The translations under genes and the position numbers were made by a program. DNA of 32,000 nucleotides from Alkanindiges illinoisensis DSM 15370. Its GTDB lineage: Bacteria; Pseudomonadota; Gammaproteobacteria; Pseudomonadales; Moraxellaceae. Below are positions 3 to 30,581 of this stretch, piece after piece (position 1 is the stretch's first letter; each line of letters starts with the position of its first letter). The stretch is from contig NZ_JHUX01000007.1 in the NCBI RefSeq assembly GCF_000619845.1, positions 154,562 through 186,561 on the forward strand, in the 5' to 3' direction. The notes beneath the pieces were generated by a model that ran no database searches, was not told the origin of the DNA, and saw only the letters and a list, made by a program, of their open reading frames with translations.

Positions 3-374
3 TTGGCTAAACTTGTAGAAACCCTAGATTTAACGGACAGAGTAATATTTACTGGAAAAATTAGTAATCCAATTCAGTGGTTTGCTAAAGCAGATATAGG
101 GATAATTTCATCCGAAATAGAAGGTTTCCCGAATGTGCTTATTGAGATGATGGCCTCTGGATCAAAGCAAATTATTACGACACCGTGTACAGATGGGGTT
201 AATTCTATACCTTATATATCTATTACACAGGATTGTTCAATTGAAGCTATTGAAACGTCACTGAGGGCAAACTTAAAAAACCCAATAGATAATTCTTTCA
301 ACAATAAAGAATATATTAATCAAAACCGCTCTGTAGAAGCTTTTTGGCAAAAAGTTGAGGAACTTATTAAATAA
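3..374 (+). CDS. Glycosyltransferase family 1 (GT-B), C-terminal part; 5' end lies outside the window
   Basis: The ORF is open at the window edge, and the leading M in the track is a translated TTG rather than a real start. EGFPNVLIEMMASG...IITT matches the GT1 C-terminal donor-binding signature. The stop overlaps the next start (TAATG). Confidence 0.6.
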   Translation: MAKLVETLDLTDRVIFTGKISNPIQWFAKADIGIISSEIEGFPNVLIEMMASGSKQIITTPCTDGVNSIPYISITQDCSIEAIETSLRANLKNPIDNSFNNKEYINQNRSVEAFWQKVEELIK

Positions 375-1516
375 TGAAATTTCTCTTAATCGCCAGCTAT
401 CCAGCTTCTATCCTAAAATTTCGCGGTGCCTTAATTAAAGCTCTGCAAAACGCTGGCTTTGAAATTCATATTGCTGCGCCAGAATTTAATCATTTCCCTG
501 AAGAATTTAATGCTTTAAAGGCATTGGGCTACGCTGTCTATGATATTCCCATGCAGCGTACAGGCACTAATCCCATTGCAGATGCAAAAACCTTATTTGC
601 TCTATACCACTTGATGAAAAAGATTAAGCCGGATTATGTGATGGGCTATACCATTAAACCGGTTATTTATGGCGTATTGGCGGCAACTTTTGCTCGCGTC
701 CCCAACCGGTTTGCCCTTATTACGGGTTTAGGCTATGCCTTTCAGGGTGCAGAAGAATTAAATTATAAAAAGACTAATTTGCAACGCTTGGTTCATCAGT
801 TATATGCCACAGCATTATCCTCGACAAAAAAAGTATTTTTTCAAAATCCTGATGATCAGATGTTATTTAAAAAAATGGGAATCTTAAAAGATTCAGTTTC
901 AAGTTTTGTCGTGAATGGATCTGGTGTAAATGTATTTGAGTATGCCGTAAAACCTTTTCCTACGAATAATAATCTACCCACACCAAAGTTTTTATTAATT
1001 GCCAGATTATTGGGTGATAAAGGCATACGTGAATATGCACAAGCAGCTAAAATTATTAAAAATAAACACCCACAAATTCAATTTGATTTGGTTGGGTGGA
1101 TTGATGATAACCCTAATGCAATTCGGCAAGATGAGCTTGACGGTTGGATCAGCGAGGGGCTATTTCACTATTGGGGCAAGTTGAGTGATGTTAAGCCCGC
1201 TATTGCTGCTAGTTCCATTTATGTTTTGCCGTCTTATCGTGAAGGCACACCGCGGACTGTACTTGAAGCAATGGCCATGGGCAGACCAATTATTACTACG
1301 AATGCTCCCGGCTGCCGTGAAACGGTGATTGATGGCTACAATGGTTATCTCATTCCTATAAAATCCGTCAGTGAGCTGGCTAACGCTATGGAAAAATTTA
1401 TTCTTAATCCTGAACTTATTTATAAAATGGGTGCCGCTTCACGTAAATTTGCAGAAGAAAAGTTTGATGTTAATGCAGTCAATCAAACCATGCTAAGTGA
1501 AATGGGAATTTTATGA
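374..1516 (+). CDS. PglA-like GT4 glycosyltransferase, probably adding the second sugar to the Und-PP-bacillosamine-type primer
   Basis: 380-aa ORF resembling Campylobacter PglA-type enzymes along its length as I recall them (ILKFRGALIKAL, RFALITGLGYAF, LLIARLLGDKGIREY, VLPSYREGTPRTVLEAMAMGRP). It has an ATGA start/stop overlap with the next gene. Confidence 0.7.
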   Translation: MKFLLIASYPASILKFRGALIKALQNAGFEIHIAAPEFNHFPEEFNALKALGYAVYDIPMQRTGTNPIADAKTLFALYHLMKKIKPDYVMGYTIKPVIYGVLAATFARVPNRFALITGLGYAFQGAEELNYKKTNLQRLVHQLYATALSSTKKVFFQNPDDQMLFKKMGILKDSVSSFVVNGSGVNVFEYAVKPFPTNNNLPTPKFLLIARLLGDKGIREYAQAAKIIKNKHPQIQFDLVGWIDDNPNAIRQDELDGWISEGLFHYWGKLSDVKPAIAASSIYVLPSYREGTPRTVLEAMAMGRPIITTNAPGCRETVIDGYNGYLIPIKSVSELANAMEKFILNPELIYKMGAASRKFAEEKFDVNAVNQTMLSEMGIL

Positions 1517-2124
1517 TTAAGCGACTACTGGACATCATCATTGCCTCAACCGCTTTGATTATCCTGTCACCTCTCTACATCTATGTAGCTTATAAAGTTA
1601 AAAAGAACTTGGGTTCACCAGTCTTATTCCGGCAAATTCGTCCGGGACTAGATGGTAAGCCCTTTGAAATGATTAAGTTTCGTACCATGCGTGATGCAGT
1701 GGATACACAGGGCAATCCCTTGCCAGACAGTGAGCGTTTAACGCCATTTGGTCAAATGCTGCGTTCTACCAGCCTTGATGAAATGCCAGAACTGTGGAAT
1801 GTCATTAAAGGTGATATGAGTGTGGTCGGCCCGCGCCCACTACTCATGGAGTATTTACCGCTTTATAATACTGAGCAGGCCAAACGCCATAATGTGCGTC
1901 CCGGTATGACTGGCCATGCACAGGTTAATGGCCGCAATGCCATTGGCTGGGATGAAAAATTTAAGCTGGATAGCTGGTATGTTGAAAATCAGTCAACATT
2001 ACTCGATTTTAAGATCATGTTTAAAACCGTACATAAAGTGCTGTCAAAAGATGATATTAGCGCTGAAGGCGAAGCAACCATGAGCAAGTTCACGGGTTCA
2101 AATCCTGAGCAAAAAAATGATTAA
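1513..2124 (+). CDS. Initiating phosphoglycosyltransferase, small bacterial sugar transferase family (PglC / Acinetobacter ItrA type)
   Basis: 203 aa with one N-terminal hydrophobic helix, followed by PVLFRQIRPG, FEMIKFRTM and DEMPELWNVIKGDMSVVGPRP. These are the hallmarks of the PglC-type monotopic transferases. Confidence 0.85.
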   Translation: MIKRLLDIIIASTALIILSPLYIYVAYKVKKNLGSPVLFRQIRPGLDGKPFEMIKFRTMRDAVDTQGNPLPDSERLTPFGQMLRSTSLDEMPELWNVIKGDMSVVGPRPLLMEYLPLYNTEQAKRHNVRPGMTGHAQVNGRNAIGWDEKFKLDSWYVENQSTLLDFKIMFKTVHKVLSKDDISAEGEATMSKFTGSNPEQKND

Positions 2125-2128
2125 TACT
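2080..2128 (+). repeat. Left copy of a 49-bp degenerate direct repeat covering the transferase 3' end and the ATGAnTAA junction
   Basis: By hand alignment it matches 3216-3264 at 41 of 49 positions with no gaps. It encodes MSKFTGSNPEQKND-stop and a dead ATGATTAATACT start. Confidence 0.85.
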
Positions 2129-2159
2129 TTTTTATATTTGCCTGATTGCCTAACCATAA

Positions 2160-3260
2160 ATGATGACTGATAAAACGCATGCTGCATTAGCAACGCCACA
2201 GTTAACACATGAAGTAATTGAGTTAATTCATGCTGCCAAGCGACAAGCTGCCATAGCCGTTAATGCTGAGCTAACCCTGTTATATTGGCAGGTCGGGCAG
2301 CGGATCAGACAGGAAATATTGCAGGGTAGCCGTGCAGATTATGGCAAACAGATTATTGGCAACTTATCCAAAAATTTAACTGAGCAATTTGGTAAGGGCT
2401 GGAGTAAGGCTCAACTGAATTATTGTGTAAGATTTGCAGAAATATATCAGGATAATGAGATTGTTCACGCAGTGCGTGAGCAGTTAAGCTGGACTCATTT
2501 TAAAACGCTTATATATATTGATGAGCCGCTAAAGCGTGACTTTTATTTAACGATGGCAATACAGGAACGCTGGTCAACCCGGACTCTGGATGAGCGCATT
2601 GGCTCAATGCTATTTGAACGAACCGCTATTTCTAAACAACCAGAACAAACGATTATTCACGAACTCGCACAATTAAGACAATCCGGTCAGGTTAACCCGG
2701 ACTTGCTGCTTAAAGATCCCTACATTCTTGACTTTCTTGATTTAAATGATCGTTATCTTGAAAAGGATCTGGAAGATGCAATTTTAAGGGATATTGAACA
2801 ATTTCTTTTAGAGTTGGGTTCAGGATTTACATTTATTGCACGGCAAAAACGTATCCAGATTGACGAAGATGATTTTTATATTGACTTGTTGTTTTATAAC
2901 CGCAAATTAAAACGCCTGATTGCTATTGACTTAAAAACAGAAAAATTTCGACACTCCCATAAAAGTCAAATGGAACTGTATTTGCGCTGGCTTGCCAAAT
3001 ATGAACAGGAAAAAGATGAGAATCCACCGCTAGGGATTATCTTGTGTTCATCTAAAAAGCATGAGCAAATTGAATTGCTGGATTTGGAACAATCGGATAT
3101 CCATGTGGCGGAATACCTCACAGTATTGCCATCCAAGGATATATTGCAACAACGCCTGCATCTCGCTATAGAACGTGCCAGACAACGTCTTTTACCTCAG
3201 GAGAAAGACACCATCATGAATAAGTTTACCGGTTCAAAGCCTGAGCAAGACAATGACTAA
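2160..3260 (+). CDS. YhcG-like DUF1016 protein with a PD-(D/E)XK nuclease domain; its last 14 aa derive from a duplicated transferase tail
   Basis: 366-aa ORF with a helical YhcG_N-like N-terminus (LTLLYWQVGQRI, YGKQIIGNLSKNL). The C-terminal nuclease core is FYIDLLFYNRKLKRLIAIDLKTEKF. It is AT-rich (21/60 G+C in nt 2701-2760). Confidence 0.75.
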   Translation: MMTDKTHAALATPQLTHEVIELIHAAKRQAAIAVNAELTLLYWQVGQRIRQEILQGSRADYGKQIIGNLSKNLTEQFGKGWSKAQLNYCVRFAEIYQDNEIVHAVREQLSWTHFKTLIYIDEPLKRDFYLTMAIQERWSTRTLDERIGSMLFERTAISKQPEQTIIHELAQLRQSGQVNPDLLLKDPYILDFLDLNDRYLEKDLEDAILRDIEQFLLELGSGFTFIARQKRIQIDEDDFYIDLLFYNRKLKRLIAIDLKTEKFRHSHKSQMELYLRWLAKYEQEKDENPPLGIILCSSKKHEQIELLDLEQSDIHVAEYLTVLPSKDILQQRLHLAIERARQRLLPQEKDTIMNKFTGSKPEQDND

Positions 3261-3264
3261 TACT
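3216..3264 (+). repeat. Right copy of the 49-bp degenerate direct repeat
   Basis: It encodes MNKFTGSKPEQDND-stop as the tail of the YhcG-like ORF. It also contains the live ATG (3253) of the acetyltransferase in an ATGACTAA overlap. Confidence 0.85.
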
Positions 3265-3915
3265 GTTTATGCCATTTATGGGGCATCTGGTTGTGGCCGC
3301 AGTTTAATGCCAGTGGCACGCGAGCAATTGCAGCGAGAAGGACTTAAAGCAGAAATTTATTTTATTGATGACAGCTTGGAACAACCCAAAGAAATTAATG
3401 GACATACTGCATTAAATTATGCCGCGTTTAAAGTTTTAGAAGCACAAAATAAATTTGTCCAGATTGCCATTGCCAATAGTCATATCCGCCAAAAGTTAGC
3501 CCAGCAGCTTGAGCAGGATGGCATCCAATTATGGCAGGTTAAAGCCAGCAATGTAGTCATTATGGATCAGGTGGAAATTGGTGCAGGAGCAGCACTAAGC
3601 CCGTTTGTCACCCTGACCTCCAATATTAAAATTGGCAAATGCTTTCATGCCAATTTGTATAGCTATGTTGAGCACGACTGCATTATTGGTGACTTTGTGA
3701 CTTTTGCACCGGGAGTAAAGTGCAATGGCAACATCATCATTGAAGACCATGCTTATATTGGAACAGGGGCCGTCATTAAACAGGGTACACCAGATAAGCC
3801 ATTAATTATTGGTCAAGGGTCAGTTATTGGTATGGGTGCAGTAGTCACCAAAAGTGTGCCTGCTGGTATCACGGTGGTGGGAAATCCAGCCCGACCCTTG
3901 CGGAAGGAAGGTTAA
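3253..3915 (+). CDS. PglD/NeuD-family hexapeptide-repeat sugar N-acetyltransferase
   Basis: 220 aa with an N-terminal Rossmann-like YAIYGASGCGRS segment. The C-terminal half is left-handed beta-helix repeats (IGDFVTFAPGVKCNGNIIIEDHAYIGTGAVI...IGMGAVV). Confidence 0.8.
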   Translation: MTNTVYAIYGASGCGRSLMPVAREQLQREGLKAEIYFIDDSLEQPKEINGHTALNYAAFKVLEAQNKFVQIAIANSHIRQKLAQQLEQDGIQLWQVKASNVVIMDQVEIGAGAALSPFVTLTSNIKIGKCFHANLYSYVEHDCIIGDFVTFAPGVKCNGNIIIEDHAYIGTGAVIKQGTPDKPLIIGQGSVIGMGAVVTKSVPAGITVVGNPARPLRKEG

Positions 3916-3944
3916 TGTCAGGTTCTGACATCCTATGGCACTAA

Positions 3945-4760
3945 ATGGCTTTTACATTATCGCATATGGCAGCAGCACTTCCATTTTACCGCTATCGACG
4001 ATGGATTAATTTTGAGGCATTACTCCTTGGCACTATGCTGCCGGATTTGCCATATTTTTTAAATAGTTCCCAAGCTGTATCTGAGCAATCACATTCATGG
4101 CCTGGGTTGCTAAGCTACTGTCTACCTTGGGGGTTGGGCCTATTCATGCTGTGGCACTGGCTATTAAAACCGGCGGCAATAGCATTACTGCAGCCGTGGT
4201 TAGCTATTACCGCCTTAGCGTCACCTCATGAGTTTCAGCAATGGGGGAAATCTGGTATTACGATTATTTTAGGCTTATTGCTGGGTTCCATCACACACTT
4301 AATCTGGGATGGCATTACCCATCCTGATGGCTTTATTGCCGAGCGTATTTTCTGGTTACAAGTCTCTATTCGCTTGGATTATCTTGGTGATATGTCATTG
4401 GCTCGACTTTTGCAATATGCCAGCTCCACGATGGCACTGGTCTATTTAGGCTGGTTTATCAAGACTAAGGCAAAGCAGGTGACTTGGCAAAAAGTAGCAT
4501 TCGCCAATATACCGATTATTGTACTAAAATCGTGGGTTAGTTTATTAATTATCTCTATTGTGTGCGCGGGTTCGCTGTTTTGTGCAGTGCAGGCCATGCT
4601 AAAATGGCATAGTCTGATGTTTCATAATACCTACCTGTTTTTAGCCAAGGTGTTGGTAGGGTTGCTTCAGGGTGCGATTGGGCTGTTTGTTATTTATGCA
4701 TTAGCCTATCAACTGTTATATTGGTTTTTCTATGCAAGAAGCCGCTACACCCGTAAATAA
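3945..4760 (+). CDS. DUF4184-type polytopic membrane protein, resembling YdjM-like metal-dependent hydrolases
   Basis: 271 aa. The N-terminus MAFTLSHMAAALPF...LLLGTMLPDLPYFL and the HLIWDGITHPDG histidine motif match my memory of DUF4184. It has several hydrophobic helices and no obvious Shine-Dalgarno sequence. Confidence 0.55.
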   Translation: MAFTLSHMAAALPFYRYRRWINFEALLLGTMLPDLPYFLNSSQAVSEQSHSWPGLLSYCLPWGLGLFMLWHWLLKPAAIALLQPWLAITALASPHEFQQWGKSGITIILGLLLGSITHLIWDGITHPDGFIAERIFWLQVSIRLDYLGDMSLARLLQYASSTMALVYLGWFIKTKAKQVTWQKVAFANIPIIVLKSWVSLLIISIVCAGSLFCAVQAMLKWHSLMFHNTYLFLAKVLVGLLQGAIGLFVIYALAYQLLYWFFYARSRYTRK

Positions 4761-4939
4761 TCTCAGGCTGACTCATCATCAATTAGTGCATTAAGGGCTA
4801 TTACACCAGTACTGTTTCGTTGTATTGACAGACATCAGATGACTGTCCTGAATTTTAAAAGGGATATAAGAAGCTGTGATGCAGTTTTAATCCATCAGAG
4901 TTTGCCAGTAATCCAGTTTTTTTCATTAAGATAAATATC

Positions 4940-6142
4940 ATGCTCAATACTGCTTTTCAACCATGGCCCTGTTTTACCCAGCAAGAAGCGGATGCCGTTG
5001 CCAATGTATTGCTGTCTAATAAGGTGAATTACTGGACAGGGCAGGAATGCCGCGAGTTTGAGAAAGAATTTGCTGACTGGGTGGGCGTGCCACATGCCAT
5101 TGCCCTTACCAATGGTACGGTAGCGCTGGATCTGGCCCTAAAGGCGCTGGGTATTGGCCCGGGTGATGATGTCATTGTCACGTCACGCACTTTTCTGGCC
5201 TCGGCAAGTTCAATTGTCACAGCTGGTGCTAATCCGGTATTTGCCGATATAGAAGCTGATTCACAGAACATCAGCTTGCGTACCATTCAGGCAGTCATCA
5301 CGCCGAATACCCGCGCCATTATTTGTGTGCATCTGGCAGGCTGGATGTGTGACATGGACCCGATCATGCAGTTTGCCAATGCGCGTGGCATTTATGTGAT
5401 TGAGGATTGCGCACAGGCGCATGGGGCATATTATAAAGGTCGTGCTGCCGGTTCAATTGGGCATGTTGGCGCATGGTCATTTTGTCAGGATAAAATCATG
5501 ACCACGGGTGGCGAAGGTGGCATGGTCACCACCCATGATGAGCAGCTTTGGCAAAAAATGTGGTCTTACAAGGACCATGGCAAAAGCTATGAAGCAGTCT
5601 ATCAGCGTCAGCATGCACCGGGTTTTCGCTGGGTGCATGAGTCCTTTGGCACCAATTGGCGCATGACCGAGCTGCAGGGCGTGATTGGTCGCATCCAGCT
5701 GACCTATATGCCTGAGTGGCATCAAAAGCGAACTGCCCACGCCCAGGCTATTTTAGGGGCTTGCCAGCAGGCAGGTATTTTTGAGGTACCCCTGCCATCC
5801 AGTGATTTTCAGCATGCCTATTATAAAGCCTATGCCTTTATCAAGCCTGAACAACTGGCTACAGGCTGGACGCGTGATCGGGTGATTGAGGCAATCAATG
5901 CACTGGGCGTGCCGTGTTTTAGTGGCTCATGTTCTGAGGTCTATCTGGAAAAAGCATTTGATCACACGCCGTGGCGACCAGCAGAACGTTTGCCTGTGGC
6001 CAGGCAACTGGGTGAAACCAGTGTGATGTTTCTGGTACACCCGAGCTTAAGTACGGAAGATATTGCAAAAACCCTGCAAGCCATTGCAACTGTGGCTGAG
6101 CAGGCGCGTAAACCCTCAGGTGTTATTAGCGCGAGTGAATGA
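4940..6142 (+). CDS. DegT/DnrJ/EryC1-family (PglE-like) PLP-dependent sugar aminotransferase
   Basis: 400 aa with family motifs: YWTGQECREFEKEFA, ALTNGTVALDLAL, VIEDCAQAHGA and SFCQDKIMTTGGEGGM, the last containing the PLP lysine region. Confidence 0.85.
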   Translation: MLNTAFQPWPCFTQQEADAVANVLLSNKVNYWTGQECREFEKEFADWVGVPHAIALTNGTVALDLALKALGIGPGDDVIVTSRTFLASASSIVTAGANPVFADIEADSQNISLRTIQAVITPNTRAIICVHLAGWMCDMDPIMQFANARGIYVIEDCAQAHGAYYKGRAAGSIGHVGAWSFCQDKIMTTGGEGGMVTTHDEQLWQKMWSYKDHGKSYEAVYQRQHAPGFRWVHESFGTNWRMTELQGVIGRIQLTYMPEWHQKRTAHAQAILGACQQAGIFEVPLPSSDFQHAYYKAYAFIKPEQLATGWTRDRVIEAINALGVPCFSGSCSEVYLEKAFDHTPWRPAERLPVARQLGETSVMFLVHPSLSTEDIAKTLQAIATVAEQARKPSGVISASE

Positions 6143-6146
6143 TTTC

Positions 6147-8066
6147 ATGCCTGCCAACAAACTGATACGTGGAACGCTAAAAAGCCTGTCAAGTTTGCCA
6201 CGCTGGCAAAAGCAGCTGATTATCATGTCCAGTGATCTGGTCATCATGGTCTTTATCCTGCATTTCCTGATGGCCGCGCGCTTATTGTCGCTGGACTATT
6301 ACCTGCCGCTGCAAAGTCAGGTAATTATTTATATGCTGTCTTTTGTGTTTCTGGGGCTCAGTGGCCTGTACCAGGAAATTCTACGTTCCTTTAATGAGAA
6401 TTTGTTTAAATCAGTGCTGCTGGGCCTATTTTTACTCAGTCTGGTGATCTTCAGCATTAATTCCATGCTGCTGCATATTCCGCGCTCAGTACCGTTACCT
6501 TATGTGTTTTTGCTGTTTATCTGGCTCTGGACGAGCCGGATTATGGCGCGTTTTGTGCTGCGTCACCGGCAAATTATTTTAACGCCCACCAAGAATATTC
6601 TGATCTATGGGGCAGGGTCAGCCGGCATTGCCTTATTTAATTCCCTGAGAAATCATGCCTACAAGCGAGTGGTCGGTTTTGTGGAAGATGACCCGCTGCT
6701 GGTTGGCGGACGTATTGCTGGGGTTAAGGTTTACAGTAGTCAGGAACTGGCTCGCGTAATTCCCAAACGTCAGGTACAAAAGGTACTGTTGGCCTTGCCA
6801 TCCATTACCCGTAGTAAACGCCGCCAGATTATTGAAAAACTGGAACCTTTGATGGTGAAAGTCCAGTCAGTACCGCCAATTGAAGAGCTGGTGAATGGTC
6901 GCCTGAAAATTTCTGATATACAGGAAGTGGATATCATGGATTTGCTGGGTCGTGACCCGGTGCCGCCCATTCCCCATTTTCTTAAGGCCAATATTGAGCA
7001 AAAAGTGGTAATGGTGACGGGTGCTGGCGGATCGATTGGCAGTGAATTGTGCCGTCAGATTATCAAGCTTAACCCGAAGCTATTGATTCTGCTGGAACTG
7101 TCGGAATATGCGCTGTATGCCATTGAGCAGGAGTTAAAAGCCGCCGCACCGGATTTATGCATTATTCCATCGCTGGGCAGCGTGCTGCACCAGGCCAAGC
7201 TGGAACAGCTGATGCGCAATTATCAGGTTGATACTGTTTATCATGCAGCGGCTTACAAGCATGTGCCGCTGGTTGAGGTCAATCCCTTTGTAGGCCTGAT
7301 GAATAACAGTGTGGGCACCTATCGCTGTGCCAAGGCTGCCCAGAATTCCGGGGTGGATACGTTTGTTCTGATTTCAACGGATAAGGCAGTACGTCCCACC
7401 AATGTGATGGGCGCCTCCAAGCGGATTGCCGAGCTGGCCTGTCAGGCACTGGCTGCCCAGCCGGATTGTAAAACCCAGTTTAGTCTGGTGCGCTTTGGTA
7501 ATGTACTGGGCTCATCCGGGTCTGTGGTGCCACTGTTCCGCAAGCAAATTGCCGAAGGCCTGCCCATTACTGTAACCCATCCGGAAGTGACCCGTTATTT
7601 CATGACCATTCCCGAGGCCGCCCAGCTGGTCATTCAGGCGGGTGCCATGGGTAAGGGTGGCGATGTATTTTTGCTGGATATGGGTGAGCCGGTTAAAATT
7701 GTTGATCTGGCCAAGCGCATGATTTTTTTAAGCGGTCTGACGCCACGCGAACCGGGAACCGAGCATGGCGACATTGATATTGTATTTTCCGGCCTGCGCA
7801 ATGGTGAAAAACTGTATGAAGAGCTGCTGCTTGATGATGCCAATGGTGAGCGGACTGAGCACAGCCTGATTGTGCGGGCCATTGAAAAACAGTATAGCCT
7901 TGAAGAAGTTGAAACCCTGTTGCAGCTGATTACTAATAATGCCCGTGACCTGCATGGACTGGATGAAATCCTGACCCAGCTTGAGCATTATGTGGATGGT
8001 TATCATCGCAGTCAGGTGTTTTCTCAGCCTGAGCAACTGATTGCCAATTGCCCCAAGTCAGCCTGA
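6147..8066 (+). CDS. PglF/WbpM/CapD-like membrane-anchored UDP-GlcNAc 4,6-dehydratase
   Basis: I chose the ATG at 6147 because the track start at 6063 overlaps the previous gene by 80 nt. There are about four N-terminal TM helices and two Rossmann motifs (ILIYGAGSAGIAL, VMVTGAGGSIGSEL). YHAAAYKHVP and ISTDKAVRPTNVMGASKR are also present. Confidence 0.85.
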   Translation: MPANKLIRGTLKSLSSLPRWQKQLIIMSSDLVIMVFILHFLMAARLLSLDYYLPLQSQVIIYMLSFVFLGLSGLYQEILRSFNENLFKSVLLGLFLLSLVIFSINSMLLHIPRSVPLPYVFLLFIWLWTSRIMARFVLRHRQIILTPTKNILIYGAGSAGIALFNSLRNHAYKRVVGFVEDDPLLVGGRIAGVKVYSSQELARVIPKRQVQKVLLALPSITRSKRRQIIEKLEPLMVKVQSVPPIEELVNGRLKISDIQEVDIMDLLGRDPVPPIPHFLKANIEQKVVMVTGAGGSIGSELCRQIIKLNPKLLILLELSEYALYAIEQELKAAAPDLCIIPSLGSVLHQAKLEQLMRNYQVDTVYHAAAYKHVPLVEVNPFVGLMNNSVGTYRCAKAAQNSGVDTFVLISTDKAVRPTNVMGASKRIAELACQALAAQPDCKTQFSLVRFGNVLGSSGSVVPLFRKQIAEGLPITVTHPEVTRYFMTIPEAAQLVIQAGAMGKGGDVFLLDMGEPVKIVDLAKRMIFLSGLTPREPGTEHGDIDIVFSGLRNGEKLYEELLLDDANGERTEHSLIVRAIEKQYSLEEVETLLQLITNNARDLHGLDEILTQLEHYVDGYHRSQVFSQPEQLIANCPKSA

Positions 8067-8086
8067 CCGATCAGGTGACCTATAGC

Positions 8087-8118
8087 AAAAAGCCCGATTG
8101 ATTCGGGCTTTTGTTTTT
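8087..8118. terminator. Bidirectional rho-independent terminator between the convergent dehydratase and aidB-like genes
   Basis: The sequence is aaaaAGCCCGAttgatTCGGGCTtttgttttt. A perfect 7-bp GC-rich stem is extended by A/T pairs, with a T-run on the + strand and TTTT on the - strand. Confidence 0.75.
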
Positions 8119-8153
8119 CAGCATTTTATTGAAGTTAAAACTGGCTGTTGAAT

Positions 8154-9896
8154 TTAAACATGATAAGTGCGCTGAATAATGGCTTTGGCATCCACTTCTA
8201 CAGGGAGGCTGCCATAATTATGCATGCCTTGCTGGCCCAGACGCGACAGACAAAATGCAGTAGCCACATAATCCGGAGCATGCTGGAGCAGTAAAGCTGC
8301 CTGTAATACTACTGCCAGCTGGTCGACCACATTGCGGGCACGAAATTCCAGATTTTCCCTATTTTGAAATTCTGCCTGCAAGCGGCTTACTGCCTGGTCA
8401 AACAGCGCATGTTTGCCTAGCGCTAAACTGACTTCTTTAAAATAAGCCTCCACGGTGGCCGGGGTTTTGGTCATGGCGCGTAGCACATCCAGACATTGCA
8501 CATTGCCTGAACCTTCCCAGATGGTATTAATAACAGCTTCACGGTACAGGCGTGGCATGGGGCTGTCTTCCATCACGCCACTGCCGCCAATCACTTCCAT
8601 CGCTTCATAGCTATGATTCGGTGTCCGCTTGCAAATCCAGTATTTGCCAATGGCAGTGGCAAGCCGGGCCAGCAGGCTTTCATGCGAATTCCCTGAACTG
8701 TCCTGTTCTTTTTGATCCAGCGCACGTGCCATACGCATGGTGAGTGCCAATGCCCCTTCATATTCCAGCGTCAGGTCGGCCAGCAGATTTTGCATCAGTG
8801 GCTGGTCAATCAGTGTTTTGCCAAAGGCTGCCCGTTGCCGGCAATGATGAATCGCCTGAATCAGCCCCATGCGCATAATGGCGGTTGAGCCAGTCATGCA
8901 ATCAAAGCGGGTTAAACTCACCATTTCAATAATGGTAGCAACACCACGGCCTTCCTCTCCCACCAGCCAGCCAAAGGCACCGCGAAACTCCACTTCACTG
9001 GAGGCATTGGACACATTGCCCATTTTATTTTTGAGGCGGATCACCTGCAGGCTATTTTTGCTGCCATCTGGTCGCCAGCGCGGCACCAAAAAGCAGGAAA
9101 CACCAGCATCGGTTTTGGCCAGCACCAGAAACAGGTCACACATGGGCGCGGACAAAAACCATTTGTGTCCGGTAATTTCATAATCTTCGCCCGGCCCACG
9201 CTGATGAATTGGAACAGCAACGGTAGTATTGGCGCGCACATCGGAACCGCCCTGTTTTTCGGTCATGCCCATGCCAACGGTCAGGCCGTTTTTCTGGCAA
9301 GCTGGCAAATTCCGTGGGTCATACACCGGACTCAGGATTTTTTCTTCCCACAGCGCGGCCAGTTTCGGTGTGGAGCGAATGCTGGGAATACAGGCGAAAG
9401 TCATGGTGGTGGGGCAAATGTGTCCCGCTTCCACCTGAGCCTGCATTAAAAATTTGGCAGCCCGTGCCACATGCGCACCCGCTACCGGATTAACCCACGG
9501 CAGCGAATGCAACTGGTTGGCAAAGGCTGAACGCATCAGTTCATGATAAGCCGGATGATAATGCACTACATCCACACGATGACCAAAGCGGTCATGGGTA
9601 TCCAGTTCCGGCTTGTATTTATTGGCCAGATAACCTAAGTACAAATAATCACGCGAGCCCGTGAGTGCGCCAAACTGTTTTAAATCATCAATGGCCCAGT
9701 CTGCACCTTCACGTTGTACGGCTTCCTGCAGGGCCAGATCACTGTCAAACAGGTTGATGTCACCCAGCTCAGACGATACATTAAACACCGGATGGGTTTC
9801 AGCCTGTGCTGGGGATTGAACACTCACATAGGGGTAAGCAACCGTTTGGTCTGATCCGGATGCCGGAGTGTTTAAAGTCGGGTTTGGTGGATTCAT
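8154..9896 (-). CDS. aidB: AidB-like acyl-CoA dehydrogenase
   Basis: It resembles E. coli AidB along its length as I recall it (GMGMTEKQGGSDV, GHKWFLSAP, NKMGNVSNASSEVEF, RLYREAVINTIWEGSGNVQCLDVLR). I took the ATG at 9896 because AGGAGG lies 6 nt upstream. The track's first codon is a GTG only 3 nt after that Shine-Dalgarno sequence. Confidence 0.8.
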   Translation of the reverse strand: MNPPNPTLNTPASGSDQTVAYPYVSVQSPAQAETHPVFNVSSELGDINLFDSDLALQEAVQREGADWAIDDLKQFGALTGSRDYLYLGYLANKYKPELDTHDRFGHRVDVVHYHPAYHELMRSAFANQLHSLPWVNPVAGAHVARAAKFLMQAQVEAGHICPTTMTFACIPSIRSTPKLAALWEEKILSPVYDPRNLPACQKNGLTVGMGMTEKQGGSDVRANTTVAVPIHQRGPGEDYEITGHKWFLSAPMCDLFLVLAKTDAGVSCFLVPRWRPDGSKNSLQVIRLKNKMGNVSNASSEVEFRGAFGWLVGEEGRGVATIIEMVSLTRFDCMTGSTAIMRMGLIQAIHHCRQRAAFGKTLIDQPLMQNLLADLTLEYEGALALTMRMARALDQKEQDSSGNSHESLLARLATAIGKYWICKRTPNHSYEAMEVIGGSGVMEDSPMPRLYREAVINTIWEGSGNVQCLDVLRAMTKTPATVEAYFKEVSLALGKHALFDQAVSRLQAEFQNRENLEFRARNVVDQLAVVLQAALLLQHAPDYVATAFCLSRLGQQGMHNYGSLPVEVDAKAIIQRTYHV

Positions 9897-10048
9897 CACG
9901 GGCCTCCTGATTGCTGGTTACTGATTTTCTGTCATTAAATATCGGTCAAGCCTAAGCCAAGGCCACGTTAAACCCAGTGGCAAAAACTGACATTGACCGG
10001 ACAGTCAGCAGATTACGGACATTATTCAGAAGATTGAATTCATAAAGT

Positions 10049-10657
10049 TTATTGTTCAGATTCAGCCTTAATTGTCCCAAATGCAGGTTCAGCCAGCCGT
10101 TGTACATAGTTACGCAGGTCGGTTGGCCATGGCTCGATATAGCGCAGGAAATCTTCTTTCTGACCGGTATATAATGCCCGTGCTGCTGCTTCGTATCCGG
10201 GTGCATTGCCAAGCATGGCATTCATAAAGCGGTCAGTGGCTTCCTGTGCCTGTCTTACTGCAACAGTTGCCTGATCCTGTTTGCGGGCCTGCTCCACCAG
10301 TTTACGCAAGGTCGCTGATGCACCACTGGGCTGGGTTGCCAGCCATTCCCAGTGCCGGGGTAACAGGGTCACTTCGCGTGCTACCACGCCCAGCTTTGGC
10401 CTGCCTGCGCCACGCAATGCTTCGGGTACTGCTGTTTCATTAACCGCATACTGGGTTTGCAATTGAGCCATGAGTGCAGCAGGGCTAATGGTTAAGTCAA
10501 TATCGACCATGCGACCCGTCTGATCATCAAAAATATAAATATTCTGACCCGGCTGCTGTTGCAGGGCACGACTCACTACTACAGCCACATCCCAGGGATC
10601 ACCACTGGCAAATTGCTGGTGATCTTGGAAAGCAGTCCAATGGGTTAAGGTATTCAT
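10049..10657 (-). CDS. DUF2239-family protein of unknown function
   Basis: 202-aa ORF. The segment GRPKLGVVAREVTLLPRHWEWLATQPSGAS matches my recollection of DUF2239, with no other recognisable motifs. Confidence 0.5.
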   Translation of the reverse strand: MNTLTHWTAFQDHQQFASGDPWDVAVVVSRALQQQPGQNIYIFDDQTGRMVDIDLTISPAALMAQLQTQYAVNETAVPEALRGAGRPKLGVVAREVTLLPRHWEWLATQPSGASATLRKLVEQARKQDQATVAVRQAQEATDRFMNAMLGNAPGYEAAARALYTGQKEDFLRYIEPWPTDLRNYVQRLAEPAFGTIKAESEQ

Positions 10658-10688
10658 GTTGTTCTCATTAATTTTTGAGGAAGCTTGC

Positions 10689-10739
10689 TTAATTTACCCG
10701 GATAAAAATAAATAATCAATATTACCCGGGTTAAATTAA
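10689..10739. promoter_or_regulatory. Imperfect inverted repeat, also readable as a direct repeat, in the divergent DUF2239/ADH promoter region; candidate operator
   Basis: TTAATTTACCCGG (10689-10701) pairs with CCCGGGTTAAATTAA (10725-10739). The arms are complementary apart from a single-base indel. AT(T)TACCCGG also occurs twice in direct orientation. Confidence 0.35.
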
Positions 10740-10830
10740 ATAAATTATCAAATGAAAATGTTTAAAAGTTTATGCACAGCAACTGTACAGAAAATCTACT
10801 TATCTAATGCAGGCTTGATGGAACACTGGC

Positions 10831-11976
10831 ATGCAACGAACACATTGGATAATGATCATGCGTGCAACAGCAGCCCTGTTTGAGCGTTCACTTGTTTCCC
10901 TGTCGCGCTATCCCAAAGTCAAGCTGGCCAAAATTGAGCTGGATGAACCACAAGAGTATGAAGTACTGGTCAAAATCAGTAGTTGCGGAATTTGTGGCAC
11001 TGACCATGAAGTCCTCAATGGTGACTTGCCCACAGGCAAACCCTGCGTATTGGGGCATGAAGGCGCAGGCATCATTGAAGCCATAGGCAGCAAGGTGAGC
11101 CAGTTTAAAGTCGGTGATCGTGTCATCATTAGTTTTCCCTCCTGTGGCAAATGCCGCAATTGCCTGCGCGACCAGCCACGCTATTGTGAGCTGGCAGGCC
11201 CGCTATCGTTTGGTTTTCAGCGGCTGGATGGCTCACATGCCATTAGAAAAGCCAATGGCGACAAGCTGTATGGCAATTTTTTCCAGCAATCCAGCTGGTC
11301 AACCCATGCCATTACTCTGGAGCGCAACCTGATTAAAGTGCCTGATAGCATTGATCTGGATTTGATGGGGCCACTGGGGTGCAGTATTACCACTGGTGCA
11401 GGCGCGGTACTCAATGAATTGCAGCCACAAGCGGGCAGCAGCATTGCTATTTTTGGTGGAGGCTCTACCGGACTGGCGGCAGTGATGGCAGCGGTGGTGC
11501 GCGAATGTGAAACCATTATTGTGGTTGATCCCAACAGCAACCGCTTGAAGCTGGCCAAAAAACTGGGTGCTACCCATGTGTTTAAATCGGAAAAAGAAGC
11601 CATTGCGGCCAAGATCCGGTTGTTGACCAAAAACCGGCTGGATTACAGTCTGGATTGTACGCTGGGCGGTAAGATGGTGCCTGCTGCCATGGAATCTCTG
11701 GGAATTCTAGGCGTCTGTGGCATGGTGGGTGGCGGCTCGCCCGTGCATACCTTTAAGCTGAATCATGCCGATACTTTAAATGGCAAGCGATTAATTGGCA
11801 TTGTAGGCGGCGGTGGCAAAACGCCAAATGCGCATCAGCACATCATGCAACTGCATGAGCAAGGCAAGTTCCCGCTGGAAAAACTGGTCAAGTTTTATCC
11901 GTTTAAAAAGATCAATGATGCCATTCGTGACAGTTTTAGCGGCAAGGTGGTCAAGCCCATTTTAAAAATGACCTGA
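10831..11976 (+). CDS. Zn-dependent medium-chain alcohol dehydrogenase of the aryl/benzyl-alcohol dehydrogenase (XylB-like) type
   Basis: Motifs seen are CGICGTDHEV, GHEGAGIIEAIG, the structural-zinc CGKCRNCLRDQPRYC and the NAD fold IFGGGSTGLAAV. The true start may be the ATG at 10852 or 10858 (MRATAALF...). Confidence 0.8.
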   Translation: MQRTHWIMIMRATAALFERSLVSLSRYPKVKLAKIELDEPQEYEVLVKISSCGICGTDHEVLNGDLPTGKPCVLGHEGAGIIEAIGSKVSQFKVGDRVIISFPSCGKCRNCLRDQPRYCELAGPLSFGFQRLDGSHAIRKANGDKLYGNFFQQSSWSTHAITLERNLIKVPDSIDLDLMGPLGCSITTGAGAVLNELQPQAGSSIAIFGGGSTGLAAVMAAVVRECETIIVVDPNSNRLKLAKKLGATHVFKSEKEAIAAKIRLLTKNRLDYSLDCTLGGKMVPAAMESLGILGVCGMVGGGSPVHTFKLNHADTLNGKRLIGIVGGGGKTPNAHQHIMQLHEQGKFPLEKLVKFYPFKKINDAIRDSFSGKVVKPILKMT

Positions 11977-30179: not shown

Positions 30180-30255
<76 letters not shown>

Positions 30256-30305
30256 GTTTTAAGAAAGCTAAAATCAGGTAGGCGATGTGTGAACTAACAC
30301 ACAGC

Positions 30306-30389
30306 GGTGGGATTGGGGAGCGGTCAAACCCAACAGACTGTAACTCTGTCGCGAAAGCTTCGAAGGTTCGAATCCTTCTCCCACCACCA
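30306..30389 (+). tRNA. tRNA-Tyr (anticodon GUA), long variable arm
   Basis: The acceptor stem is GGTGGGA/TCCCACC and the anticodon arm is ACAGA-CTGTAAC-TCTGT. The T arm is GAAGG-TTCGAAT-CCTTC, and CCA is encoded. Confidence 0.92.
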
Positions 30390-30412
30390 TATTTTGTAAT
30401 TCACCCTCAAGT

Positions 30413-30488
30413 GCGGGAGTAGCTCAGTTGGTAGAGCGTCAGCCTTCCAAGCTGAATGTCGCGAGTTCGACCCTCGTCTCCCGCTCCA
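30413..30488 (+). tRNA. tRNA-Gly (anticodon UCC)
   Basis: The acceptor stem is GCGGGAG/CTCCCGC and the anticodon arm is TCAGC-CTTCCAA-GCTGA. The T-loop is TTCGACC, and CCA is encoded. Confidence 0.92.
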
Positions 30489-30506
30489 AGTGAATACAGA
30501 TTTTCA

Positions 30507-30581
<75 letters not shown>

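Follow-up and report, generated by a model that had tools for sequence, protein, structure and literature searches.

A nuclease gene in the junction between itrA and qhbA

The DNA analysed here, a 32,000-nucleotide (nt) stretch of Alkanindiges illinoisensis DSM 15370 (contig NZ_JHUX01000007.1) that we call the window, holds an operon of surface-sugar genes in which a gene for a YhcG/DUF1016 protein lies between itrA, encoding an initiating sugar-phosphate transferase, and qhbA, encoding an N-acetyltransferase. The inserted gene is bracketed by an imperfect direct repeat (Table 1). Gene limits and gene order were recovered as in the open reading frame (ORF) map of a first-pass annotation made from the sequence alone.

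Positions 2080-2128 and 3216-3264 align without gaps and are identical at 41 of 49 nt; no other pair of 49-mers in the 32-kb window has 41 matches or more. Local alignment widened the repeat to 2079-2132 and 3215-3268 (54 nt, 83% identity) with a score of 63, compared with a mean of 16 and a maximum of 24 for shuffled sequences (n=300). These values bear out the direct repeat noticed in the first-pass annotation. The 49 bp given there correspond to a core, the true duplication being somewhat longer (54 nt here, and ~54-66 nt judged from relatives). Both copies contain an 8-nt start/stop overlap of the form ATGAnTAA, and through the right copy the acetyltransferase start at 3253 overlaps the end of the nuclease ORF by 8 nt (ATGACTAA).

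A scan for promoters and terminators in and beside the insert gave nothing above chance, so that the nuclease gene is presumably transcribed with the operon. One may speculate that the 17-codon ORF opened by the displaced start of the acetyltransferase gene serves as a translational relay from itrA to the nuclease gene; the details of this small ORF are not conserved across lineages.

Table 1. Features of the itrA-qhbA region and of the surrounding operon, in window coordinates.
Feature	Position	Strand	Evidence and remarks
GT4 glycosyltransferase	374-1516		ORF map and Pfam
ItrA/PglC-like initiating sugar-phosphate transferase, 203 aa	1513-2124	+	Pfam Bac_transf, E 3.5e-62; final 14 codons and stop make up most of the left repeat copy
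Left junction-repeat copy	2079-2132	+	itrA tail, ATGATTAA start/stop overlap and first codons of the displaced acetyltransferase start; aligns with native junctions of empty sites (alignment A4)
17-codon remnant ORF	2117-2170	+	Reads MINTFLY... from the displaced start codon of the acetyltransferase; its stop lies 8 nt beyond the nuclease ATG; homologue of the live start at 3253 (MTNTVY)
YhcG/DUF1016 PD-(D/E)XK nuclease gene, 366 aa	2160-3260	+	DUF1016_N at ~2211-2621, YhcG_C at ~2706-3155
Mosaic segment of the N-terminal domain, two allelic types	2300-2500	+	Sliding-window identity
Catalytic motif	2883-2936	+	D242 (2883-2885), D257-L258-K259 (2928-2936)
Right junction-repeat copy	3215-3268	+	Gives the nuclease ORF its last 14 codons and stop, and the live ATGACTAA-overlapped acetyltransferase start
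QhbA/PglD-like N-acetyltransferase, 220 aa	3253-3915	+	Pfam PglD_N and Hexapep; NCBIfam NeuD/PglB/VioB family, 174.6 bits (cutoff 160.8)
DUF4184/Zn_dep_PLPC-like gene	3945-4760	+	Pfam; second non-sugar gene of the module, between acetyltransferase and aminotransferase
QhbB/DegT-type aminotransferase	4940-6142	+	Pfam DegT_DnrJ_EryC1, E 9e-93
Gdr-type 4,6-dehydratase (Polysacc_synt_2)	6063-8066	+	Pfam; last gene of the operon; relatives of 640-642 aa
Strong terminator-like hairpin at the operon end	8088-8112	+	10-pair stem followed by a T run; none comparable between itrA and the acetyltransferase gene

The inserted gene encodes a YhcG-type nuclease

An NCBI entry from Alkanindiges illinoisensis matches the encoded protein at 100% identity. 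The protein scored above the gathering thresholds of the two family models, Pfam PF17761 and PF06250 (DUF1016_N, E 1.7e-45, 154.9 bits, cutoff 32.8; YhcG_C, E 3.6e-47, 160.6 bits, cutoff 32.5). No NCBIfam model covers it, and a PDB sequence search gave no match. Homologues are typically 338-355 amino acids (aa) long, and the window protein exceeds them at its C-terminus by the 14 residues that are encoded in the right repeat copy.

In alignments of 11 and of 67 sequences, D242, L258 and K259 were invariant and position 257 was either D or E. The structure was predicted with AlphaFold. The prediction from 11 close homologues had a predicted local distance difference test score (pLDDT) of 57 and was not used; the one redone with 67 sequences reached a mean of 65 overall and 72-80 in the core, with the borrowed tail predicted to be disordered (~35). 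The predicted core runs alpha-beta-beta-beta-alpha-beta (H196-218, E223-234, E237-247, E252-259, H265-281, E288-296), and two of its beta strands (237-247, 252-259) carry the motif residues. All top Foldseek matches of this model were PD-(D/E)XK nucleases (Cas4-family ACE1, AdnAB, MGME1, Can2 and NucS/EndoMS), with marginal E-values (best 3.7e-4). The predicted fold is restriction-endonuclease-like, at a modest model confidence. Pfam assignment, intact D...D-x-K motif and predicted fold thus agree on membership of the PD-(D/E)XK family, as proposed at the outset. The protein belongs to a known family and had been annotated before, and the new part is its recurrent context in glycan operons.

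Most related loci have an uninterrupted junction

Species-representative genomes were scanned with the ItrA protein, which gave 80 Moraxellaceae loci whose ItrA relatives are 77-90% identical to that of the window. The itrA and acetyltransferase genes adjoin or overlap in 70 of them (projected gaps of -19 to +6 nt), eight have no PglD homologue at that place, and YhcG was found in two, both from Alkanindiges-like metagenome-assembled genomes (MAGs). One uninterrupted junction belongs to another species of the genus: Alkanindiges hydrocarboniclasticus H1 reads ATGAATGA at this point, and its downstream genes are 91-92% identical to those of the window. The claim that the nuclease gene had been spliced into a normally overlapping transferase-acetyltransferase junction is therefore upheld.

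Other carriers were found as well. The same slot is filled in loci L001/L002/L011, L003 and L024, and the nearest YhcG homologues (83%, 76% and 74% aa identity) lie on metagenomic or MAG contigs with the gene order Bac_transf, YhcG, PglD, DUF4184, DegT, dehydratase. Carriers are Alkanindiges-type loci only; the slot is identical, and each has the right-hand copy of the itrA tail. An aidB-like gene comes next after the module in L001 and L003, whose contigs reach that far. Judged from these comparisons, the insertion is old, common to at least four lineages and not peculiar to this genome. Locus L003 also contains two ParE/ParD-type toxin-antitoxin pairs between its last glycosyltransferase gene and itrA (6042-7257).

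The repeat copies record exchange between diverged alleles

When all junction copies were aligned (alignment A4), a right copy was present at the 3' end of YhcG in every carrier. In L001, L003 and L024 this copy has decayed to ATGA(C/T)TAAATTTATTTATTTTAGCCTTGGGCA(A/C)AAG(C/T)ATGA, which in the ItrA frame still translates as MTKF...GQKHE-stop. A lack of the right copy in L001 and L024 was ruled out, their apparent spacer aligning as a decayed copy. YhcG of these three loci ends at a TAA inside the right copy, one frame off, and in the window an upstream 1-nt length difference puts YhcG in the ItrA frame, with read-through to the copy's own stop. Because of this 1-nt frame difference, and because related loci stop within the repeat, the missing nuclease stop and the borrowed tail of 14 aa are secondary. 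The earlier statement that the gene has no stop codon of its own is correct for the window lineage and does not extend to L001, L003 and L024.

In related loci the left copy also takes in ~6 codons of the acetyltransferase gene (MNSAMY vs MNNAIY), which gives a duplication of ~54-66 nt. Locus L003 has an extra complete junction copy, joined at ATGA and leading into a different PglD allele, of the type present at the empty site of L058. Sliding-window comparison placed an identity breakpoint between L003 and L024 exactly at the repeat; among L001, L003 and L024, a tract of high identity spans the itrA stop to the right copy. Exchange between diverged alleles at the junction is thus visible, and a fresh target-site duplication, already argued against in the first-pass annotation, does not account for the repeat.

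YhcG is under purifying selection, with ratios of non-synonymous to synonymous substitution rates (dN/dS) of 0.04-0.18. The window YhcG is 72-78% identical to the others at the nucleotide level, about as diverged as the flanks (77-85%). Among L001, L003 and L024, dS was 0.2-0.46 for YhcG vs 0.5-2.0 for the flanking itrA and degT. In the mosaic segment of the N-terminal domain the window resembles L001 (79-91%) and not L003/L024 (60-70%); L001 and L003/L024 share 58-77% identity in this segment and 90-98% downstream. The same two allelic types occur among Acinetobacter homologues embedded in restriction-modification (R-M) operons, and proteins P0004 and P0009 differ in the same segment. A stretch of ~55 DUF1016_N residues is found in two sharply distinct forms, recombining among otherwise near-identical proteins in K-locus and R-M contexts. 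This mosaic segment may be a specificity module.

An independent case in Aliarcobacter

In Aliarcobacter skirrowii and A. cryaerophilus a YhcG gene is located between neuB and neuC, its product being 58.5% identical to the window protein in global alignment and 61% by tblastn. The host operon there, for flagellin glycosylation with nonulosonic acid, has Maf and flagellin genes close by. The YhcG gene is bracketed by a direct repeat of 32-38 nt, which carries the NeuB tail KDYKEDELI-stop, an ATGA overlap and ATGAAA, so that the gene borrows both its start and its stop. On the metagenomic contig L156, a direct duplication of 2.3 kb (1626-3973 and 6099-8446, 100% identity) cuts off the start of neuC behind YhcG, probably because strain variants were joined during assembly.

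In the Aliarcobacter genomes L169-L172, further accessory genes of the operon lie at ~4600-5440 and 9200-11830. A second DUF1016 gene, 35% identical to the first, is present in L169 and L172. A 17/21 match spans the start of the gene downstream of this second YhcG and is not significant in that AT-rich DNA. Between degT and a PglD-like gene, a RhuM gene is found in L170 and a KilA-N gene in L169 and L172, and L171 is empty; no flanking duplications were found around these RhuM and KilA-N insertions. The RhuM, KilA-N and DUF1016 families have also been described within or beside Type I R-M loci.

In L169, two copies of the neuC tail (9170-9202 vs 10774-10806, 31/33 nt), with an alignment score of 49 vs a shuffle maximum of 37, bracket a formyltransferase and PIG-L gene pair that follows neuC. 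Since the same scar surrounds these two genes, it marks gene gain in such operons in general and not the nuclease in particular.

YhcG genes in restriction-modification operons and on plasmids

Outside this slot, the next closest homologues occur in hsdM-hsdS-YhcG-hsdR arrangements with overlapping stops and starts in Acinetobacter (79%), Plesiomonas and Aeromonas, and the Acinetobacter homologue adjoins GmrSD and an integrase. YhcG genes embedded in Type I R-M operons (PDC-S02) are full-length family matches to the window gene with 70-79% aa identity in these three genera, have the same two domains and the same motif, and are likewise promoterless with ATGA overlaps to their neighbours. They differ from the window gene in three respects: the window operon is predicted to make a surface sugar and not to restrict DNA, a long duplication of the junction surrounds its insert, and the C-terminus of its nuclease is borrowed from the upstream gene. 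Around YhcG genes in R-M contexts (L004-L008, L089-L146 and others) the search for flanking repeats gave just 11-12-nt matches, which is the control level.

The immediate neighbours of 80 metagenomic YhcG relatives were also scored, upstream in 64 and downstream in 57. The upstream neighbour was HsdS in 17/64, HsdM in 9/64, an Eco57I-type methylase in 8/64 and NeuB in 4/64; HsdR was the downstream neighbour in 10-11/57. In Mannheimia haemolytica (L175/L176, 4698-6877), YhcG and two small ORFs separate glyQ from glyS, a pair that is normally a single operon. Plasmids with a YhcG match numbered 518, with up to 68% identity in cyanobacteria, and phage genomes gave distant homologues only (<40% identity).

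The window protein matches the PADLOC candidate PDC-S02 over its full length (PDLC04807, E 1.5e-132). It is not located in a defence island: its neighbours in the window are sugar genes. Close homologues elsewhere do lie in R-M operons with GmrSD. DUF1016 or RhuM-domain genes have been described between the core genes of individual Type I R-M loci (PMC9881135). A literature search found no report of DUF1016 or RhuM within capsule or glycosylation loci; a Legionella paper that mentions DUF1016 puts the gene outside the O-antigen cluster.

Origin of the insertion

On balance we think that an accessory YhcG nuclease gene was recombined into the coupled itrA-qhbA junction, and that the repeat is the original junction, displaced by recombination and not by transposition. 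The duplicated piece consists of the 3' end of a conserved flanking gene, and its copies are allelic, that is, diverged. Incoming DNA would have paired with a diverged allele in the conserved flanking gene, with its other end joined illegitimately, as in homology-facilitated illegitimate recombination (HFIR). The resident itrA 3' end, together with the acetyltransferase start region, would have been pushed downstream and retained. Both copies would then be kept by selection, since the left one completes ItrA with its stop and the right one carries the native start context of the acetyltransferase gene. In the window lineage, translation of the nuclease would continue across the right copy, append 14 residues predicted to be disordered, terminate on ATGACTAA and pass ribosomes to the acetyltransferase gene.

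HFIR is documented in Acinetobacter (de Vries & Wackernagel 2002, as cited in PMC5361080), and an origin of this type has been proposed for the orphan 3' ends of type VI secretion system (T6SS) and Rhs loci (PMC5361080). The window shares with the orphan ends of Rhs, contact-dependent inhibition (CDI) and T6SS loci the anchoring in a conserved upstream gene, a displaced and retained 3' end, allelic diverged copies and a variable scar length. In contrast to those, the displaced piece is only ~50 nt long, would be kept for the start of the next gene and not for an encoded immunity gene, and accompanies a nuclease or a sugar enzyme as cargo in place of a toxin module.

Several points weigh against this picture. 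The founding YhcG gene, coming from a non-glycan context, would have had no itrA anchor, so that anchored recombination fits later spread and allele swaps better than the first arrival. The window copies are closer to each other (83%) than to the copies of other lineages, in a comparison over 54 nt that is too short to decide; gene conversion, or copies that started out identical, could also explain this closeness. As to the nuclease itself, the structure model is only modestly confident (mean pLDDT 65, best Foldseek E 3.7e-4), and in the sole reported test a PDC-S02 representative failed to protect E. coli B against T4, T5 or T7 (bioRxiv 10.1101/2024.09.26.614923).

It is possible, if rather less probable, that the gene entered once, long ago, at a staggered break or through a short tandem duplication, which left two identical copies, that their 16-17% difference measures age, and that the gene was then inherited vertically and lost precisely from A. 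hydrocarboniclasticus through recombination between the copies. The slot and the right copy are indeed common to all four carrier lineages, the divergence of the window YhcG (72-78% nt identity) is similar to that of the flanks (77-85%), and the 83% identity between left and right copies falls within the flank range. However, L003 directly shows a junction copy that was added from another allele, and YhcG is far less diverged than its flanks among L001, L003 and L024. The mutual closeness of the window copies, compared with their orthologous copies, would in this case require gene conversion, and no known mechanism yields staggered cuts of 32-66 nt.

We consider it unlikely that YhcG is a selfish hitch-hiker of operons, a promoterless, homing-like nuclease that spreads into the junctions of R-M, glycan and glyQS operons with no defence benefit to the host. 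The many unrelated junctions that the family occupies (hsdS-hsdR, neuB-neuC, glyQ...glyS in Mannheimia), its wide transfer (68% identity to cyanobacterial plasmid copies, 518 plasmids matched) and the faster exchange of YhcG than of its flanks among lineages would suit such a gene. But the junction is duplicated and not destroyed, so that both sides would still offer a homing target, and an ordinary sugar-gene insertion with the same scar makes a nuclease-specific mobility unnecessary; strong purifying selection and conservation across phyla suggest a cellular function. Finally, although a single foreign gene bracketed by a direct repeat recalls the target-site duplication or att pair of a transposon, an integron cassette or an integrase-driven element, this origin is scarcely credible: the borders have neither terminal inverted repeats nor attC-like palindromes, the 1.1-kb insert has the nuclease gene as its single ORF and contains no transposase or integrase gene (an integrase search over the whole window was not made), the repeat length is not fixed and differs by event (32, 54 and ~66 nt), and the repeat coincides exactly with the coding junction of the flanking genes.

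The sugar operon around the insertion

The Bac_transf, PglD_N/Hexapep, DegT and Polysacc_synt_2 families of an itrA-qhbA-qhbB-gdr module are all present in this order, in synteny with 70 Moraxellaceae loci. In Acinetobacter K loci, itrA1-qhbA-qhbB-gdr is the module for D-QuiNAc4NAc, from which the gene names used here are taken (PMC9676051). From its gene content, the module in this Alkanindiges surface-polysaccharide operon is accordingly predicted to make QuiNAc4NAc, a bacillosamine-type sugar. Its four sugar genes are the same, in the same order, and 50-90% identical to those of the Acinetobacter module. Unlike the latter, the window module is interleaved with two additional non-sugar genes (YhcG and DUF4184), and the locus adjoins an aidB-like gene in place of galU-ugd-gpi.

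The DUF4184 gene is specific to the Alkanindiges lineage: it is present in all Alkanindiges-type loci (the window, L001, L003, L024 and the YhcG-less L058) and absent from ~70 Acinetobacter and Psychrobacter loci. A flanking duplication was looked for around the window DUF4184 gene and none was found. This gene is strongly diverged (51-61% aa identity). The true start of the dehydratase gene is probably downstream of the listed TTG, as suggested by the 80-nt overlap with the aminotransferase gene and by the length of its relatives. Elsewhere in the window, four tRNA genes are clustered at 30180-30578 on the + strand.

Possible functions of the nuclease and implications

A DNA-targeting conflict or defence nuclease is the function that we tentatively rank first. 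It is favoured because Type I R-M operons house the closest relatives outside the slot and because the family is a PADLOC candidate. An anti-phage role in particular is plausible but unproven, the PDC-S02 match and the close homologues in Type I R-M operons both pointing in this direction.

A wider proposal, which seems to us quite improbable as it stands, would make YhcG/DUF1016, RhuM and KilA-N a class of promoterless, operon-embedded conflict genes that are recruited into the coupled junctions of loci which a phage has to overcome, namely R-M operons and receptor-glycan operons (capsule, flagellin glycosylation). There, tied to transcription and translation of the host operon, they could act as second-line sensors or effectors, as PrrC does for EcoprrI, or help such hypervariable loci to diversify by recombination. 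Genes of the PrrC/RloC type, PrrC itself being an anticodon nuclease, are embedded in Type I R-M loci. They likewise are accessory enzymes nested in a host operon, with their expression and perhaps their activity tied to the surrounding system, but have no sequence relationship to YhcG.

That the protein was recruited to the glycan pathway or to the regulation of that pathway, and does not act as a nuclease in conflict, is very doubtful. Its retention under purifying selection in sugar operons of two phyla and its putative translational coupling to sugar enzymes would agree with such a role; against it stand ~70 related loci that have the same module without YhcG, the intact catalytic D...D-x-K motif, the near-identical family members in R-M operons and the fact that this fold is without known sugar chemistry.

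Should the nuclease turn out to be inert against phage and foreign DNA, the locus would still be a tidy example of recombinational gene gain. The junction-duplication scar is a simple, searchable signature of the gain of a single gene in coupled operons that spares both neighbours, and could help to follow and date the arrival of genes in K, O and glycosylation loci. Phage receptors are determined by capsule and flagellin-glycan loci and DNA-level immunity by R-M loci, and the same accessory families (DUF1016, RhuM/KilA-N) are found in both kinds of operon, in two phyla. This suggests that defence-candidate genes are not confined to classical islands and also ride in receptor-specifying operons, where they are missed by island-based searches.

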